Of a stretch of 34,002 nt of DNA, positions 11,990 through 27,373 are shown piece after piece. The stretch's first letter is position 1; the number at the start of each line of letters is the position of its first letter. Both the position numbers and the translations under genes were made by a program. Below the pieces are notes generated by a model. It made no database searches. It saw only the letters and a list, made by a program, of their open reading frames with translations, and was not told where the DNA came from. Source of the stretch: Candidatus Pacearchaeota archaeon (lineage in GTDB: Archaea > Nanobdellota > Nanobdellia > Pacearchaeales > GW2011-AR1); the NCBI GenBank assembly GCA_023142835.1, contig JAGLIS010000010.1, forward strand, positions 1 through 34,002. The letters run 5' to 3'.

Positions 11990-12661
11990 CCAATAAAAAA
12001 TCGGCTTAATATAGAAAGGACAGGATTTCCAACACATATCTAAGGTATAAAAAATCTCTTTTCAGGTTGCTTAGATTGTTTGTATATTCTTTCTGCTTTT
12101 AAAAAAGTATTATTTTTGTATCCCCGCTCCAACCAAGGCATTAAACCTCTTGCATTCAGAGCATATAAAGATCCCAATTGTGCTATTACTTCTTTATCAT
12201 CGACTTCTTTTAGATTTATTTTTACGCCTTGTTCTTCAAATAATCTGTCAGTAAGAGCATCTAATTGTCCAAGATAATCCAATACATGTGTTTCTTCATG
12301 ACTCCTGTTCTGAATATCTGATTTTTTTGTTGATCTTTCAAGATAAAAAATATGCAAATTAAATCCTTCTTCATAATATTTTCCAATTGCATATATATAT
12401 TCATCTGCATTATAATTTGAATTATCTAAACCATATAATTTATCTACTTTCATAATTGTATCAAGGATAGAATCAACATACCCATCATCATGATACTTGT
12501 ATGATCCTGATGGCACAGTAAATCCTAATACTTGAAAACGTGCTTTATTCATAGTTATAAGATTATAATTATTATTTATAAATATTTATATTTATCAGTC
12601 ATTTAATAGTAGTAAAGCAATCCTACCCTTAACTAAAACCTAATTTCTCTTAATCCTAAAA
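11984..12661. mobile_element. Decayed integron-like cassette 1
   Basis: Starts at G|TTAA with a 25-nt motif 21/25 identical to the cassette 3 start; ends in TTCTCTTAATCCT (12645-12657), identical to 25922-25934; right boundary approximate. Confidence 0.55.
12040..12552 (-). CDS. Hypothetical protein with HExxH motif (possible zincin-like metallopeptidase)
   Basis: SHEETH motif with downstream KEVIA; 170 aa; TATA upstream. Confidence 0.6.
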   Translation of the reverse strand: MNKARFQVLGFTVPSGSYKYHDDGYVDSILDTIMKVDKLYGLDNSNYNADEYIYAIGKYYEEGFNLHIFYLERSTKKSDIQNRSHEETHVLDYLGQLDALTDRLFEEQGVKINLKEVDDKEVIAQLGSLYALNARGLMPWLERGYKNNTFLKAERIYKQSKQPEKRFFIP

Positions 12662-22155: not shown

Positions 22156-22491
22156 ATGGAAGAATGCATATTTTGTAAGATTATTCGTGGAGAGATACCT
22201 TGTCAGAAAGTTTTAGAAGATGATAATTTTGTTGTAATCAGGGATGCAAATCCTAAGGTTGTTGATCATTTACTTGTAATTCCTAGGGAACACTATGGGA
22301 ATTTTTTAGAGATACCTTCTGAGTTATATAGGAAACTGTTGGAGATTACAAAAAGAGCTATAGAAAAATTAGATGTAAATGAATTTAATTTAGTTGTGAA
22401 TAATGGTAAATCTGCGGGGCAGTTAATTTCACATGCTCATTTACATATTTTGCCGAGGAAAGAAGGCGACGGGTTTAGGTTGAATGTTTAA
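22156..22491 (+). CDS. HIT family nucleotide hydrolase
   Basis: CIFCKII, HLLVIP, NNGKSAGQ, HAHLH. Confidence 0.93.
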   Translation: MEECIFCKIIRGEIPCQKVLEDDNFVVIRDANPKVVDHLLVIPREHYGNFLEIPSELYRKLLEITKRAIEKLDVNEFNLVVNNGKSAGQLISHAHLHILPRKEGDGFRLNV

Positions 22492-22547
22492 CATCGCGAT
22501 TAAGAGGAAATTTCAGCAAGAAATTTCCTCTTAATCGCTGTTATACG
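22486..22547 (-). repeat. attC-like recombination site
   Basis: Perfect 19-bp arms GCGATTAAGAGGAAATTTC (22496-22514) / (22520-22538), closed by TAACA/TGTTA with a 2-nt bulge; outer cores GTTTAAC and GTTATAC. Confidence 0.8.
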
Positions 22548-23347
22548 TTTTTTCTGCAAGAAAAAATCGTCGAAGGCGACAGTATGACGCAGACACCAAA
22601 CCCTAATTTGAAAACTTAAAAGCCCATTTCCGCAACATTAATAACGAGTATATAGTTTCTATAAGACAATGAAAACTAATGTAGGGTGGGACATCGGTTC
22701 ATTGGTATATGATTTATTTACTGGTAAGGTTGATGAACAACTTTATTTGGAAGTCCTTTTAGCTCTTGGTACACTAGATGGGATTAAACTTGATGAATTT
22801 GGTTGTGGAACAGGAAATTTAACTGGTAGATTGCCAGAAACAACTAAAATTAGAGCTGTTGATTATTCTCCTATTGCAATAGCTAAAGCAAAACAAAAAA
22901 CAAGTAAAAATGTGGGTTTTTTTATTATGGATTTTTATCAAGAACAACCAAATGGTTACAAACCAGATAAGATTGTGGCTTGCAGAAGTCTTTATCATTC
23001 AGACCTGTCATTAAGTTTAGGGATATTATCTAGACATTTAGGAGATGGAGGGGAAGCTATTATTGCACATCCAACTGAAAATTGGAGAAAATATGTTACA
23101 CCAATAGTTAATGGAAAAAGAGAATTTAATTTTGTTCAATTTGTAAAATCAAATTGGAGATTTGCAAACCGCATGGGTGTGCCTTATGCATTATTCAGTG
23201 CTGATGAATTTGAAAGAGTAGGGAAACAACATTTTGATGAAGTTATAATAAATTCTGCAGGTTATGATACTCATTATCTTGTTCAGTTAAGGAAAAGGGC
23301 TTTTTCTAAAAAATAATTTGTTTGGTGTTGAGTAATATTGCGTATAA
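22492..23347. mobile_element. Solitary integron-like cassette 2 (856 bp)
   Basis: TAACAT at both junctions (22489-22494, 23345-23350); GTTATACG (22540-22547) exactly complementary to CGTATAAC (23341-23348); removal restores GTTTAAC-ATGAG-GTTATCA. Confidence 0.75.
22669..23316 (+). CDS. Class I SAM-dependent methyltransferase (cassette cargo)
   Basis: DEFGCGTG motif I, AVDYSP..I..AK motif II, RSLYH. Confidence 0.85.
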   Translation: MKTNVGWDIGSLVYDLFTGKVDEQLYLEVLLALGTLDGIKLDEFGCGTGNLTGRLPETTKIRAVDYSPIAIAKAKQKTSKNVGFFIMDFYQEQPNGYKPDKIVACRSLYHSDLSLSLGILSRHLGDGGEAIIAHPTENWRKYVTPIVNGKREFNFVQFVKSNWRFANRMGVPYALFSADEFERVGKQHFDEVIINSAGYDTHYLVQLRKRAFSKK

Positions 23348-23360
23348 CATGAGGTTATCA
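23342..23360. other. attI/attG-like simple site (AAC-N5-GTT) at cassette junction
   Basis: GTATAAC-ATGAG-GTTATCA: two inverted 7-bp cores separated by 5 bp. Confidence 0.65.
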
Positions 23361-23419
23361 ATAGTTTATTATTGATAATCTCCTAATAAGTATAGAAAAC
23401 AATAATTTCATCCATCTAA

Positions 23420-24802
23420 CTACTTCCCTTTCTTCCCAATATCCAACTTAATATGAACATCTTTTAACTGCCTGTCCGAAAGCGGGCTAGGTGCATCAAC
23501 CATCAAATCCTTCGCCTCCTTATTCTTCGGAAACGCAATCGTCTCCCTAATAGATTCTACTCCAAGAATCACTTGAATTAATCTATCCAATCCCCACGCT
23601 ATTCCACCATGTGGCGGTGCTCCAAATTTTAGTGCGTCTAATAAGAAACCAAATTTCTCTTTCTGTTCTTTCTTCCCGATTCCAAGAACCTCGAAAACTT
23701 TCGCTTGAATATCTTCTTCATGAATTCTTATCGAGCCTCCACATATCTCAACCCCATTTAGAACTGTATCATACGCAATTGATTTCGCGGTTTTAGGGTC
23801 TTTGTTAAACGACTCCATTTCTGGATGTGTAAACGGGTGATGTATTGCAACAGTTTTATTTTCTTCTTTTGAATATTCAAATAATGGAAAATCTACAACC
23901 CAACAAAAAGCGAATTCCTTGGAGTCATTTTTATCTTTTCTTAAATCAGGTCTATCTGTTTTATATTTTTTCATAGCCTCATCATGAGTAATTTTTTGAA
24001 AGGGTGTTTTAACTTCGACGTTTAAAATTTCTTTCCAAATCTTTTTTATAATCTTCTCGGTTAGAGCCATAACATCTTCTTGACTAACAAAAGACATCTC
24101 GATATCAAGTTGTGTAAATTCGGGTTGTCTGTCCGACCGAAGATCCTCGTCCCTCATGCATCTTGCAATCTGAAAATATTTCTCAAATCCTGCCACCATC
24201 AAAAGTTGCTTAAATAACTGGGGTGATTGTGGAAGCGCGAAAAATTTCCCAGGCTGTGTTCTCGACGGAACGATATAATCCCTAGCTCCTTCTGGCGTAG
24301 ACTTCGCAAGCATCGGAGTCTCAAACTCATTAAACCCTTCCTCATATAATGCATCTCGAATTATCCTAACAACTTTACTCCTCAAAATTAAATTCTTCTG
24401 CATCTCTGGTCTTCTCAAATCTAAATACCTATATTTCAGACGGATATCCTCGCCAACTTCATCATTATCTATGTCAAACGGGAGTGCTGAACATTTATTG
24501 TATATTTCAAGTTCCTGAATTTTTACCTCGACATTTCCAGCAGGTGAATTTTTATTCTCCGTTCCCGTCGGCCTTGAACTAACATTACCTTTAATTTTAA
24601 TACATGATTCCTTCGTCAAAGATTTTGCTATTTCGAAATTTTTCTCATCCTTCGCAGTAACAATTGTTTGGACCGAACCAGTCACATCCCTTATTTCTAA
24701 AAAAATTAACTTACCGTGCTCTCTAATTGTATCAACCCATCCAGCTATTTCAACTTCATTTCCCTCGAGAGAAGAGAGCTCCTTAATCATTGTTCTTGCC
24801 AT
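23420..24802 (-). CDS. aspS: Aspartyl-tRNA synthetase, bacterial type lacking the GAD insertion, probably non-discriminating
   Basis: RLKYRYLDLR, STPEGARDY, ALPQSPQLFKQLLM, RDEDLRSDRQPEFTQLDIEMSF, GAPPHGGIAWGLDR, IAFPK; only 460 aa. Confidence 0.95.
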   Translation of the reverse strand: MARTMIKELSSLEGNEVEIAGWVDTIREHGKLIFLEIRDVTGSVQTIVTAKDEKNFEIAKSLTKESCIKIKGNVSSRPTGTENKNSPAGNVEVKIQELEIYNKCSALPFDIDNDEVGEDIRLKYRYLDLRRPEMQKNLILRSKVVRIIRDALYEEGFNEFETPMLAKSTPEGARDYIVPSRTQPGKFFALPQSPQLFKQLLMVAGFEKYFQIARCMRDEDLRSDRQPEFTQLDIEMSFVSQEDVMALTEKIIKKIWKEILNVEVKTPFQKITHDEAMKKYKTDRPDLRKDKNDSKEFAFCWVVDFPLFEYSKEENKTVAIHHPFTHPEMESFNKDPKTAKSIAYDTVLNGVEICGGSIRIHEEDIQAKVFEVLGIGKKEQKEKFGFLLDALKFGAPPHGGIAWGLDRLIQVILGVESIRETIAFPKNKEAKDLMVDAPSPLSDRQLKDVHIKLDIGKKGK

Positions 24803-24871
24803 AATCAGATATATTATCAGGCTTTTTAAAATTGTGGTTAAGTTTTTATAGTATCTTTATTTTGTTGAATT

Positions 24872-25033
24872 ATGAATGAAGAAAACAAACGACTTTTGGT
24901 TGCTGGAATAGCTGGAGCATTAGGGGGTGCTTTGGGTGCAGTTTGTGGTTCAAGTAGCTTATTCGTCGTCATGTGTGTTTCCCTTGGTGGTGCGGTTTTG
25001 ATTGCTTGGGGAATTAATGGGATGTTTAATTAA
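24872..25033 (+). CDS. 53-aa glycine-zipper membrane protein (not in the ORF track)
   Basis: MNEENKRLLVAGIAGALGGALGAVCGSSSLFVVMCVSLGGAVLIAWGINGMFN; TTTTTATA about 22 nt upstream. Confidence 0.7.
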   Translation: MNEENKRLLVAGIAGALGGALGAVCGSSSLFVVMCVSLGGAVLIAWGINGMFN

Positions 25034-25092
25034 AGTTCTGTAAACATCCTAAAATGATATCTTTTGAGAAATAAATTTCGCAGTACTGCATG

Positions 25093-25938
25093 TTAAACTC
25101 AATAAAAAATCAGCTAAAAATTGAAGGGGGCAAAAATTTATTTGGTTATTTTCACAATACCTAGAAGTGCATCTTTTTTGTTTTTTGGATTCTTAAATTT
25201 ATATAAAAAATTTATCAATTTTCTTCTAACAGGTGGTGCTTTTGGATTTACCTTTCTTGCTTTTTTCAACTTTGTTGAATCATAAATTAGTAATAAATCA
25301 ATTCGAACTGGATAACCTCTATCCAAAGGTGTGTGCTCGTAAAAATGCCAAACTGTATCACCAAATTCTGTGGGGTATTTGTTATCTTTTGGAATGACTA
25401 ACGTTCCATTCTTAATTGTGATTGTTCCTGCTTGAATATCATAATCATACCCACTGAATTCATCATGACACACACCTTTTCTTTTCAGATCATATTTGTC
25501 TGTCCCAGTTCTCAAAACAATATTTGCTAATTTATTCAATGATAATCCCTTATGATCATCTGATCCAATAGCACGAAAAATATATTTACCATCCGAAAAA
25601 CTTTTTTCCAATACTGCATCTACCTTTTTTCCCAATTTTAAATAATTAGGTTTCTTCTTCACATTATATTCAGGAAGATACACTTCTATTACTTTAACTA
25701 CCATATTATACTTCACAATTATATACCTTTATTAAATTTTTGCCCCTTGATTCTTTTTATTAATGGTGCTTCGCACTTGATACGCTGACTTTTTACTTTG
25801 GATTTTTCCCTTCGGGAACGTTGCACTAAAATCCAATCCCTTGCGGGAGAATTTAACAGCGATTAAGAGATTCCGAAGTCTTGCAGACTTCTCCATCCAA
25901 ATTTTCACCTACGGCGAAAACTTCTCTTAATCCTGATG
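25093..25938. mobile_element. Solitary integron-like cassette 3 (846 bp)
   Basis: Start G|TTAAACTC complementary (8/9) to GAATTTAAC (25849-25857); ATGT at both junctions; terminal attC-like site shares 16 nt with the cassette 2 site. Confidence 0.7.
25138..25704 (-). CDS. Hypothetical protein (cassette cargo)
   Basis: About 188 aa from ATG 25704 (track start GTG 25716); TATA-like TTTAATAA about 25 nt upstream. Confidence 0.75.
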   Translation of the reverse strand: MVVKVIEVYLPEYNVKKKPNYLKLGKKVDAVLEKSFSDGKYIFRAIGSDDHKGLSLNKLANIVLRTGTDKYDLKRKGVCHDEFSGYDYDIQAGTITIKNGTLVIPKDNKYPTEFGDTVWHFYEHTPLDRGYPVRIDLLLIYDSTKLKKARKVNPKAPPVRRKLINFLYKFKNPKNKKDALLGIVKITK

Positions 25939-25944
25939 TCATCC
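25849..25944 (+). repeat. attC-like recombination site
   Basis: GAATTTAAC-AGC-GATTAAGAGA...TCTCTTAATC-CTGAT-GTC with two internal hairpins (GAAGTCT-TGC-AGACTTC; TTTTCACC-TAC-GGCGAAAA). Confidence 0.75.
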
Positions 25945-25948
25945 ATAA

Positions 25949-27373
25949 TTAAATAACTTCCTTCAAAACATCCGCAACCTCTTTCCCAGAAACTTTTCCC
26001 CTAAATTTTCCCATAACCAATCCCATGTACGCCCCCTGCGACAACCCTGGATTCTCTTTAACAAATTTCTCAACTTCTTCTTTCAAATTAATATCTGATT
26101 TTTCTATTGCCTTATCAAGAGTTTCCCCCTGAACAATTTTTTGCATAACCGTCCTAACATCATTCTTCGAAATCTTTTTCCCAACCTCTTCTAAAATCGC
26201 CTCTAACAAATGAACATTTAAAATTTCACTAACTTCAGCCAAAGATTTCTTTTCTTTTTTTGCAATCTCCATCTGGAAAAGCGTTAAAGATTTTGCTATC
26301 AATTCAGGACTCTCGATAACATGATTAAGTGTTTTAAAATCCTCGACCTTATTCTGTTTCAAAATCAACTTTACTAACTCTTCATTTAACCCAAACTCAT
26401 CTAAATAAGACCTATGCTCGGATGCAAGTTTTGGAAGATTATTTTTAGCTTCGTTAATTAACTCTCGTGAAATTTTCAAAAGTGGGACATCAGTTTCAGG
26501 ATACATTCTTGCAGCTCCTGGCATTGGTCGTTGAAATACTGAAGTCCCATCGGGAAGTGCTCCACGAACTTCGTTTTTACATTCATTATTTTTAAGGCAT
26601 TCTTTCTGTCGAGAAATTTCTATATCAATCGTCTTAATCATCATCTTAGGATCTTGGAATCCTTTAATTTCAACTCGCTTACTTCCCTTAATCGAAACAT
26701 TGACATCTTGACGAATCGTTCCAATTCCTCTCTTTACATTACATGCCCTCAATATCTCCCCAATTTTCATGGCGACTTCCTTACATTGCTTAGGAGAATA
26801 AATTTCTGGTTTTGTAGTAATTTCAACAAGCGGGATACCCAACCTATCTAACTTAAATGTCTTCGTTTTCTCATCCTCCGAAACTTTCCTCGCTGAATCT
26901 TCTTCTAAGGCAATAGTTTCAATCCCAACCTTTCCCTCAGGAGTTTCGACATAACCATCATGAGCAATCAACACAGTTCTTTGAAATCCAGAAGTGTTCG
27001 TTCCATCGACGACAGTTTTTCTCATTACTTGAGTTACTGGAAATGTATTACAATGAAACAATTCTGCAATTTGTAAAACTATCTTTAACGCATCAACATT
27101 AATTTCTCCCGGAGGAGATTCATCAAGTTCGACTAGACAGTTAGTATCATAAACATGGTAAATAAAAGTTTTATTTTTCATTTTTTCATGGGCAGCAGCG
27201 ACGTCAATTTCTCCAGTCTCACCTACCACAGGATTCAATATTCTCTCAACAGTATAGTCTGGCTCGTCATTTCTTAACAAAGAAGGACAATCACAAAATA
27301 GTTTATTCGTATTAAGTTGCTGATGAATTTCCAATCCAATCTTAAGTCCATCCTTTTTATAATCATGTTCCAT
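25949..27373 (-). CDS. gatE: Glu-tRNA(Gln) amidotransferase subunit E, short form
   Basis: GLEIHQQL, CLVELDE.PP, MRKTVVDGTNTSGFQRT, RGIGTIRQDVNVSI, RPMPGAARMYPETD. Confidence 0.95.
   Translation of the reverse strand: MEHDYKKDGLKIGLEIHQQLNTNKLFCDCPSLLRNDEPDYTVERILNPVVGETGEIDVAAAHEKMKNKTFIYHVYDTNCLVELDESPPGEINVDALKIVLQIAELFHCNTFPVTQVMRKTVVDGTNTSGFQRTVLIAHDGYVETPEGKVGIETIALEEDSARKVSEDEKTKTFKLDRLGIPLVEITTKPEIYSPKQCKEVAMKIGEILRACNVKRGIGTIRQDVNVSIKGSKRVEIKGFQDPKMMIKTIDIEISRQKECLKNNECKNEVRGALPDGTSVFQRPMPGAARMYPETDVPLLKISRELINEAKNNLPKLASEHRSYLDEFGLNEELVKLILKQNKVEDFKTLNHVIESPELIAKSLTLFQMEIAKKEKKSLAEVSEILNVHLLEAILEEVGKKISKNDVRTVMQKIVQGETLDKAIEKSDINLKEEVEKFVKENPGLSQGAYMGLVMGKFRGKVSGKEVADVLKEVI

Follow-up and report, generated by a model that had tools for sequence, protein, structure and literature searches.

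Integrons are textbook gene-capture machines, and how a gene first acquires a recombination site is still an open question. In sedentary chromosomal integrons with homogeneous attC sites, such as those of Vibrio (Vibrio cholerae repeats, VCRs), the recombination sites are long, lineage-specific and highly similar across unrelated cargo. As described in Loot et al. 2017 (PMC5371416), the opening bases of each cassette are complementary to the inverse core site at the far end, the variable bases of the box belong to the neighbouring cassette, and the genesis of cassettes is largely unknown. For archaeal integrons, the openly accessible literature that was searched yielded only Ghaly et al. 2022 (PMC9668308), the available text of which reports attC-type sites and arrays in archaeal metagenome-assembled genomes, including those of Nanoarchaeota (DPANN), mostly without an integrase; the attC fold described there is the standard one, and the integrase is IntI with its extra domain. 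The DNA analyzed here (the window) is a stretch of 34,002 nucleotides from Candidatus Pacearchaeota archaeon (contig JAGLIS010000010.1 of assembly GCA_023142835.1), in which three genes, together with their flanks designated cassettes 1, 2 and 3, are enclosed by nested inverted repeats.

The window is contig C2 of the assembly, which is referred to below as G000 (0.8 Mb, 33.6% G+C), and it encodes the archaeal marker families DUF424 and DUF5679 as well as housekeeping genes. The comparison covered 49 genomes of its genus, G000 included, and an order sample of 151 genomes from 84 genera. The cassettes probably belong, as mobile gene cassettes, to an integron-like system in DPANN-type archaea, and their nested repeats would be the two halves of an extended recombination site formed by one folded strand.

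Sites, boxes and arms of the cassette family

In the closest relative, G012, whose asparaginyl-tRNA synthetase (AsnRS) is 92% identical to that of the window, the HIT and AsnRS genes are separated by 24 nt, compared to 928 nt in the window, and the gene for a 53-aa protein is separated from GatB by 20 nt, compared to 915 nt. Since the spacings are short at both joints of G012, cassettes 2 and 3 are insertions. The cassette joints are occupied by different genes in further relatives, and the cassette-1 locus is also variable among relatives. At these junctions of conserved genes, the insertions in the window carry attC-like sites.

The cassette flanks recur around other genes on contigs C66, C65, C53 and C3 of G000. 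Four long copies of the hairpin element share a three-way-junction fold in which 12 of 28 pairs are compensated, and a covariance model, R1, was built from these copies. With this model, sites were found at 10 places in G000, in 33 of the 49 genomes of the genus and in 49 of the 151 genomes of the order sample (32 of the 84 genera), often in same-strand arrays with a spacing of 0.4–5 kb. When 45 sites were aligned, 94.6% of the cells were paired, compared to 30–59% in slid controls, and changes on both sides were present in 25 of 28 pairs (0/500 shuffles).

The layout of the site consists of ...TAAC, a short spacer, a stem of 10–11 bp, the three-way junction and then GTTA.... Over 91 sites, the first bases of the R' box were G in 88, T in 91, T in 90 and A in 80, and the consensus reads ...TAAC on the 5' side, where R'' ends in AAC, and GTTA-D-D-Y on the 3' side. 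These boxes represent the AAC...GTT signature of integron attC sites. No Rfam family reached threshold for the site, tRNA being the only family found at the gathering threshold; microRNA-precursor look-alikes on the perfect hairpin scored below threshold and were discarded. Further R1 matches in G000 lie at C39:2456-2552 and, more weakly, at C31:6282-6377, C3:8377-8489, C53:3505-3638 and C20:5810-5898.

Summed contig depth rose about 10-fold at 22504-22654 and 25826-25976 in all four metagenome runs. Metagenome contigs diverge at the boxes, unitigs break at both sites of the window, and in many relatives the sites lie at contig ends. It was also noted that attC-like sites fragment assemblies. 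Homology between genomes likewise breaks at the boxes, mostly 2–13 nt before the C of AAC and sometimes 2–8 nt after the G, with further breaks at the end of the side hairpins (+57 to +72).

Over the 26 array intervals of the genus, the nine bases of R' (following the G of GTT) formed on average 7.0/9 pairs with the box of the next site and 5.2/9 with the box of their own site. Pairing across the cassette was the better of the two in 17 intervals and the worse in 6, and the preference was replicated in other genera (20 versus 10 of 41). That R' pairs more strongly with the following R'' than with the R'' of the same site, together with homology breakpoints at the boxes, is the pattern that corresponds to a crossover within one of the boxes. 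The earlier note had described the nested ends as something unfamiliar from classical integron cassettes. This description holds for the inner arms, which are the new part and lie beyond the classical integron picture, but not for the outermost stem, which is ordinary R'/R'' pairing and not new.

For the inner arms, the 200 nt that follow the R' 9-mer were matched against the last 40 nt ahead of the R'' 9-mer, and an ungapped match of 10 or more was scored as an arm. The genus set consisted of 30 cassettes (26 array cassettes and 4 defined by hand in G000), and the set from other genera of 41 intervals, those shorter than 250 nt having been left out. Arms were present in 17 of the 30 genus cassettes (14 of the 26 array cassettes), compared to 5.1% of 870 cross-pairs, and in 21 of the 41 intervals from other genera, compared to 5.0% of 1640 cross-pairs. 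For matches of 12 or more, the corresponding values were 11/30 versus 0.8% and 15/41 versus 1.1%. Arms were also associated with good boxes: they were found in 25 of the 31 intervals with an R-box match of 8/9 or better and in 13 of the 40 others (Fisher p 9e-5).

The position of the arms is regular as well. Exactly 2 nt remain between the arm and the R'' 9-mer in 30 of 38 cases, and the 5' arm lies 42–116 nt into the cassette, beyond the conserved side hairpins. The claim that the cassettes share one architecture with inner stems of differing sequence thus extends to the 30 genus cassettes and the 41 intervals from other genera; further family members do possess end-to-end complementarity, the lack of which the earlier note had named as grounds for giving up its proposal. 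These family-level tests reject chance for the arms. In the openly accessible literature searched, as far as its text was available, no account of such arms or of complementarity beyond the R box was found.

A gene lying between inverted repeats and inserted between conserved genes is also what a transposon or a miniature inverted-repeat transposable element (MITE) would look like, its terminal inverted repeats being recognised as double-stranded DNA. A transposase would need shared ends, whereas the arms are private to each cassette and only 5% of cross-pairs match. In addition, no clear target-site duplication was seen at the empty sites of G012, and the boundaries coincide with the AAC/GTT boxes of a structured site. 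The cassettes thus differ from such elements in both private ends and the state of the empty sites, and we consider this origin very unlikely.

Several properties bear on the molecule that folds. Wobble cells in the site stems amount to 289 G.T and 44 A.C, favouring the strand that reads ...TAAC-site-GTTA.... This strand also gives the more stable arms in 21 of 30 cassettes, compared to 8 for the opposite strand and one tie. Among terminal loops, 89 of 182 are G-N-A triloops, which are unusually stable in DNA. In cassettes 2 and 3, a TATA-like box stands 25–32 nt ahead of the start, and the 5' arms either cover it or are located upstream of it, so that the genes' own transcripts would not contain them. 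Of 30 cassettes, 10 have their largest open reading frame (ORF) on the folding strand and 20 on the opposite one. From the strand bias of the wobbles, the triloops, the arm position relative to the TATA-like box and the presence of cargo on either strand, the fold is read as one of single-stranded DNA.

Wobbles of the G.U type favour one strand, which could in principle be transcribed, and pairing in RNA, either as an interaction between the 5' and 3' parts of a transcript or as a structured non-coding RNA, would account for them. The same arm position and the 20 versus 10 distribution of cargo speak against it, as do the G-N-A triloops, the arrays with exchange breakpoints at the boxes and the Rfam result. 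An action in RNA is therefore regarded as highly improbable.

Shells, recombinase and proposed mechanism

A 403-nt cassette of G059 has both ends and the outer part of the arm in common with cassette 2, while the cargo differs. For the inner arm, one member of this pair has ACACCAAAC/GTTTGGTGT and the other GGCCGATTTG/CAAATTGGCC, and both are complementary, so that compensatory changes of the kind the earlier note had suggested looking for among homologous cassettes were found here. In three genera, cassettes of G119, G181 and G084 share about 100–156 nt of their 5' ends and about 100–136 nt of their 3' ends around unrelated cargo of 1.6, 1.7 and 9.7 kb, and the shared sequence contains the arm TTAAATTTTCAC/GTGAAAATTTAA. 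The inner arm of G181 differs from that of the other two shells and is still complementary. Within G000, GGGGCAAAAA occurs 11 times, and three different cassette genes are each bracketed by an inverted pair of this sequence. For the 192-aa protein of cassette 3, one partial match was found among the 48 other genus genomes, and therefore no orthologous cassettes were usable for covariation.

Shared shells with different cargo would fit the suggestion, made in the earlier note, of a gene captured into a hairpin loop. On this basis, the arms may be explained as a record of cassette making, in which a ready-made hairpin shell receives a gene in its loop and no present function of the arms is needed. 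Such a relic origin is supported by the shell of G119, G181 and G084, by the common ends of cassette 2 and the G059 cassette, by the GGGGCAAAAA arms around three different genes, and by the position of arms directly beside or across the stop codon or promoter. It is weakened by the lack of an empty shell (the shortest cassettes found, of 393 nt, still contain an ORF), and no gene-loading event was seen. The fixed register, the strand bias of the wobbles and the compensated arms point instead to continuing selection on pairing. Furthermore, in the single orthologous pair available, the arms differ at 1 of 27 positions and the side hairpins at about 11 of 50, as judged by eye. The relic account overlaps with the mobile-cassette explanation and does not exclude it; taken by itself, it appears unlikely, though it deserves some weight.

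With respect to the enzyme, classical IntI (TIGR02249) reached the cut-off in none of the 49 genus genomes. The recombinase matches to the IntI model cover positions 1-181 and 237-315 only, without the IntI-specific insert. In a tree of 32 Xer-like proteins, 17 housekeeping-type sequences were separated from 15 others by a split with 100/100 support, and the 15-member clade contains all 13 array-adjacent genes. These array-type genes are situated 0.5–4 kb past the last attC-like site, downstream on the folding strand (for example G062:C1:328813-329610, G024:C2:173222-174010 and G046:C13:7188-7976). The hairpin that follows cassette 2 in the window (type a) is also present about 50–90 nt upstream of the start of an array-type recombinase at loci L147, L114 and L075, and the copy at 23349-23390 is a candidate for an attI-like primary site. 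The window itself encodes no recombinase, and it contains single cassettes and no array.

Each cassette is bounded by structured attC-like sites, and its first nine bases pair with the nine bases at its far end (the R box, as in classical integrons). Past two conserved side hairpins, a private arm pairs with a stretch whose end is 2 nt short of the far R''; the gene, which has a promoter of its own and may face either way, is left in the terminal loop. In the proposed mechanism, these private arms may hold together the two ends of one cassette on single-stranded DNA and keep the cargo sequence from interfering with the site, so that the Xer-like recombinase beside the arrays of relatives might be able to excise or circularise precisely one cassette. 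It is plausible that the arms would bring the cassette ends together for excision, as the earlier note had surmised. The three copies in the window would be stranded single cassettes with degenerate terminal sites and may no longer move.

The pairings in the window were recounted. The earlier note had listed seven of them, 8/8, 9/12 plus one G.T and 9/9 in cassette 2, 8/9, 12/14 and 14/14 in cassette 3, and 10/12 in cassette 1, and every count was reproduced exactly. The end-to-end stems and two side hairpins are retained in whole-cassette DNA folds of cassettes 2 and 3, in both the minimum free energy and the centroid structure, with z values of -3.1 and -3.7, respectively (20 shuffles each). 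Co-folding of both flanks was compared with 500 dinucleotide shuffles, a control that the earlier note had called for. Cassette 2 (gain -18.5 versus a shuffle mean of -9.0 kcal/mol, with 3/500 shuffles as low) and cassette 3 (-32.0 versus -11.6, with 0/500) passed it, but cassette 1 did not (-9.5 versus -5.8, with 57/500; not significant).

A number of observations weigh against the mobile-cassette explanation, and some of them come from the same genome. Among 790 ORFs of G000 ranked by flank complementarity, cassette 3 was second, cassette 2 25th and cassette 1 66th. Upstream flanks combined with unrelated downstream flanks gave the same distribution as true pairs: at -38 or lower, 1.5 were expected and 2 observed, and at -28 or lower, 43 were expected and 31 observed. 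Flank complementarity thus shows no genome-wide excess and is not a general property of genes in G000. Because unrelated flanks match as strongly, the window alone is insufficient against chance for cassettes 1 and 2; considered by itself, its complementarity is within the chance range for these two and at the edge of that range for cassette 3.

The equal duplex energies of unrelated flank pairs and the result for cassette 1 are also what would be expected if the matches arose by chance between A-rich promoter and T-rich terminator regions of a low-G+C genome. Cross-cassette controls of the same composition, which gave arms in 5% of pairs compared to 51–57% of cassettes, contradict this, together with the fixed register and the absence of equally low shuffles for cassette 3. 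The case against chance rests on the family-level tests and not on the window, and with these tests included a chance origin is scarcely credible.

Other points of the same tendency concern the family and the enzyme. Of the 31 well-bounded cassettes, 6 have no 10-base arm. One arm sequence occurs three times in the genus set and another three times in the set from other genera; since shells are shared between cassettes, the cassettes are not independent. Breakpoints occur at both boxes, so that the site that travels, upstream or downstream, is not assignable. The computed probability of R-box pairing was 0.55 with native arms and 0.50 after the arms had been swapped, the native arms giving the higher value in 20 of 28, which is a weak effect; a minimal site without arms reached 0.63. 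G000 encodes one tyrosine recombinase only, a housekeeping-type Xer. An exact cassette-skipping contig was absent in the four metagenome runs, where uncovered parts carry no meaning, and no circle junction of these cassettes was seen.

A more speculative extension of the mobile-cassette explanation, which is offered tentatively, is that the site may be a two-ended rod of single-stranded DNA composed of the junction tip, the crossover box in the middle, the closing helices and the cargo loop. The shells would be loaded with genes, and the arms would be either a scar or a tool of this loading. If true, gene loading into pre-existing shells would be a concrete route for cassette genesis. The significance of the locus is that, in this large group of uncultivated archaea, the site does not simply come after the gene but wraps around it by cassette-specific helices in a fixed register, and that one shell is met with different cargo. 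Should the arms be functional, they would offer a novel means of keeping a structure-specific recombination site robust in an AT-rich genome and of joining the two ends of a single cassette; should they be scars, the capture step itself would be recorded in them. A system without the domain thought to define integron integrases also bears on the evolution of integron-type recombination from Xer.

Features of the window

Cassette 2 is preceded on the plus strand by a short attC-like site at 22484..22553 (R1 match of 33.7 bits, E 1.4e-4), which is missing from the empty site of G012. Its R'' box GTTTAAC (22486-22492) overlaps the stop codon of the HIT gene, and it is followed by an inverted repeat forming a perfect 19-bp stem (22496-22514 / 22520-22538) and by the R' box GTTATAC (22540-22546). 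The cassette itself was delimited at 22540..23348 (plus strand) by pair counts and DNA folding. Its R' end (22540-22547) and R'' end (23341-23348) enclose two side hairpins (22548-22566 and 22567-22579, the latter with a GAA triloop), the 5' arm (22580-22601) and the 3' arm (23320-23340).

Between the arms, also on the plus strand, lies a methyltransferase gene (22669-23316) assigned by Pfam methyltransferase domains, with a promoter-like TTAATAA about 25–31 nt upstream of the ATG. The protein has a weak PADLOC match to the methylation-associated defence model mad2 (E 6e-8), and for the other cargo proteins, four of which were put through the PADLOC scan, neither Pfam nor PADLOC gave a match. 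After the cassette, the terminal type-a hairpin site occupies 23349..23390 on the plus strand, with its stem at 23353-23363 / 23370-23380; a hairpin of this type also terminates the C65 cassette.

Cassette 3 was mapped to 25092..25857 on the minus strand by pair counts, DNA folding and shuffles (0/500). It is preceded by the full-length attC-like three-way-junction site 'H' at 25844..25946 (minus strand, R1 match of 101.9 bits), which adjoins the stop codon of the GatB-type gene and shows alternative junctions among metagenome contigs. By the R1 model, the window contains these two sites, 3.3 kb apart and on opposite strands; a CALIN in the sense of IntegronFinder comprises at least two attC sites, called by its own model, within 4 kb and no intI.

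All parts of cassette 3 are on the minus strand. The R' end (25849-25857), whose partner is the R'' end at 25092-25100, is followed by a small hairpin (25837-25848), by a conserved hairpin (25798-25836) with a GAA triloop and the loop motif GTGCAACG, copies of which are present in C3, C53 and C66, and by the outer arm (25784-25797, partner 25101-25114). A GTGC-GAA-GCAC hairpin (25766-25776) separates this arm from the inner arm (25733-25746), which lies over a site resembling a B recognition element and TATA box and has its partner, 25127-25140, over the stop codon. The gene (25138-25716) encodes the 192-aa protein, for which no Pfam or PADLOC family was found.

Some cassettes (L158, L171 and L155) have a small hairpin module of this kind (TATATGTGCGAAGCAC-like, GTGC-GNA-GCAC) as a direct repeat, with one copy immediately ahead of the inner arm at each end, and in cassette 3 it is present at one end only (25766-25776). 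The cassette is terminated by a type-b module (25034..25091, minus strand), which reaches the stop codon of the 53-aa gene; it shares 82% identity over 62 nt with the terminal part of the C66 cassette, and no other copy was found in the sequences compared.

Cassette 1 is a decayed copy at 12016..12656 on the minus strand, with arms at 12016-12027 / 12619-12630, a gene at 12040-12552 and the half-site remnant GGATTAAGAG at 12647-12656 (minus strand). Its upstream flank matches a C53 cassette with 84% identity over 68 nt. The motif GATTAAGAG was considered as a genome-wide repeat and rejected: 25 copies compare with about 10 expected, most are intragenic, and only the C2 copies belong to the element.

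In two relatives, G002 and G022, duplicated gene ends were observed at the same junctions of conserved genes as the insertions of the window. At locus L026 (G002:C35), around 2800-2920, two unrelated genes (258 aa, nucleotidyltransferase-like as judged by eye, and 216 aa) lie between the 53-aa gene and GatB, separated by a duplicate of about 45 nt of the 3' end of the 53-aa gene. At L176 (G022:C6), the start of the DUF424 gene (13 codons, 1907-1945) is duplicated beside the real gene, at the position that cassette 1 occupies in the window.

Comparison with described systems

The system resembles classical integrons in several respects. The site is a folded imperfect palindrome with AAC/GTT triplets, in which the fold is conserved and not the sequence; short cassettes form same-strand arrays; folding favours one of the two strands; the variable bases behind GTT are complementary to the inverse core site at the opposite end of their cassette; and in relatives a tyrosine recombinase gene stands at the array end, reading away from it. 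In contrast, IntI with its additional domain was not found in the genus genomes. Compared to the textbook site, the spacers are different (about 4 nt and 1–2 nt), the R box comprises 9 bp, and the three-way-junction tip is conserved. Classical cassettes are mostly promoterless and driven by the cassette promoter Pc, whereas those described here have their own promoters and stand in either orientation. By description, they further differ in the side hairpins and the private closing helix on the cargo side of the R box.

Relative to the archaeal sites of Ghaly et al. 2022 (PMC9668308), the differences are, as far as the available text describes them, the Xer-like array recombinase and the complementarity beyond the site, neither of which appears there. 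Subterminal hairpins, combined with ends that are not inverted, are a feature of IS200/IS605 elements with their Y1 HUH transposase; the inverted R boxes and the array tyrosine recombinase point elsewhere, although no search for TnpA was made. Compared to the VCRs of Vibrio, the conserved block continues beyond the crossover box into the cassette, where it takes in the side hairpins and the outer arm, and it has a matching partner at the other end of the cassette.

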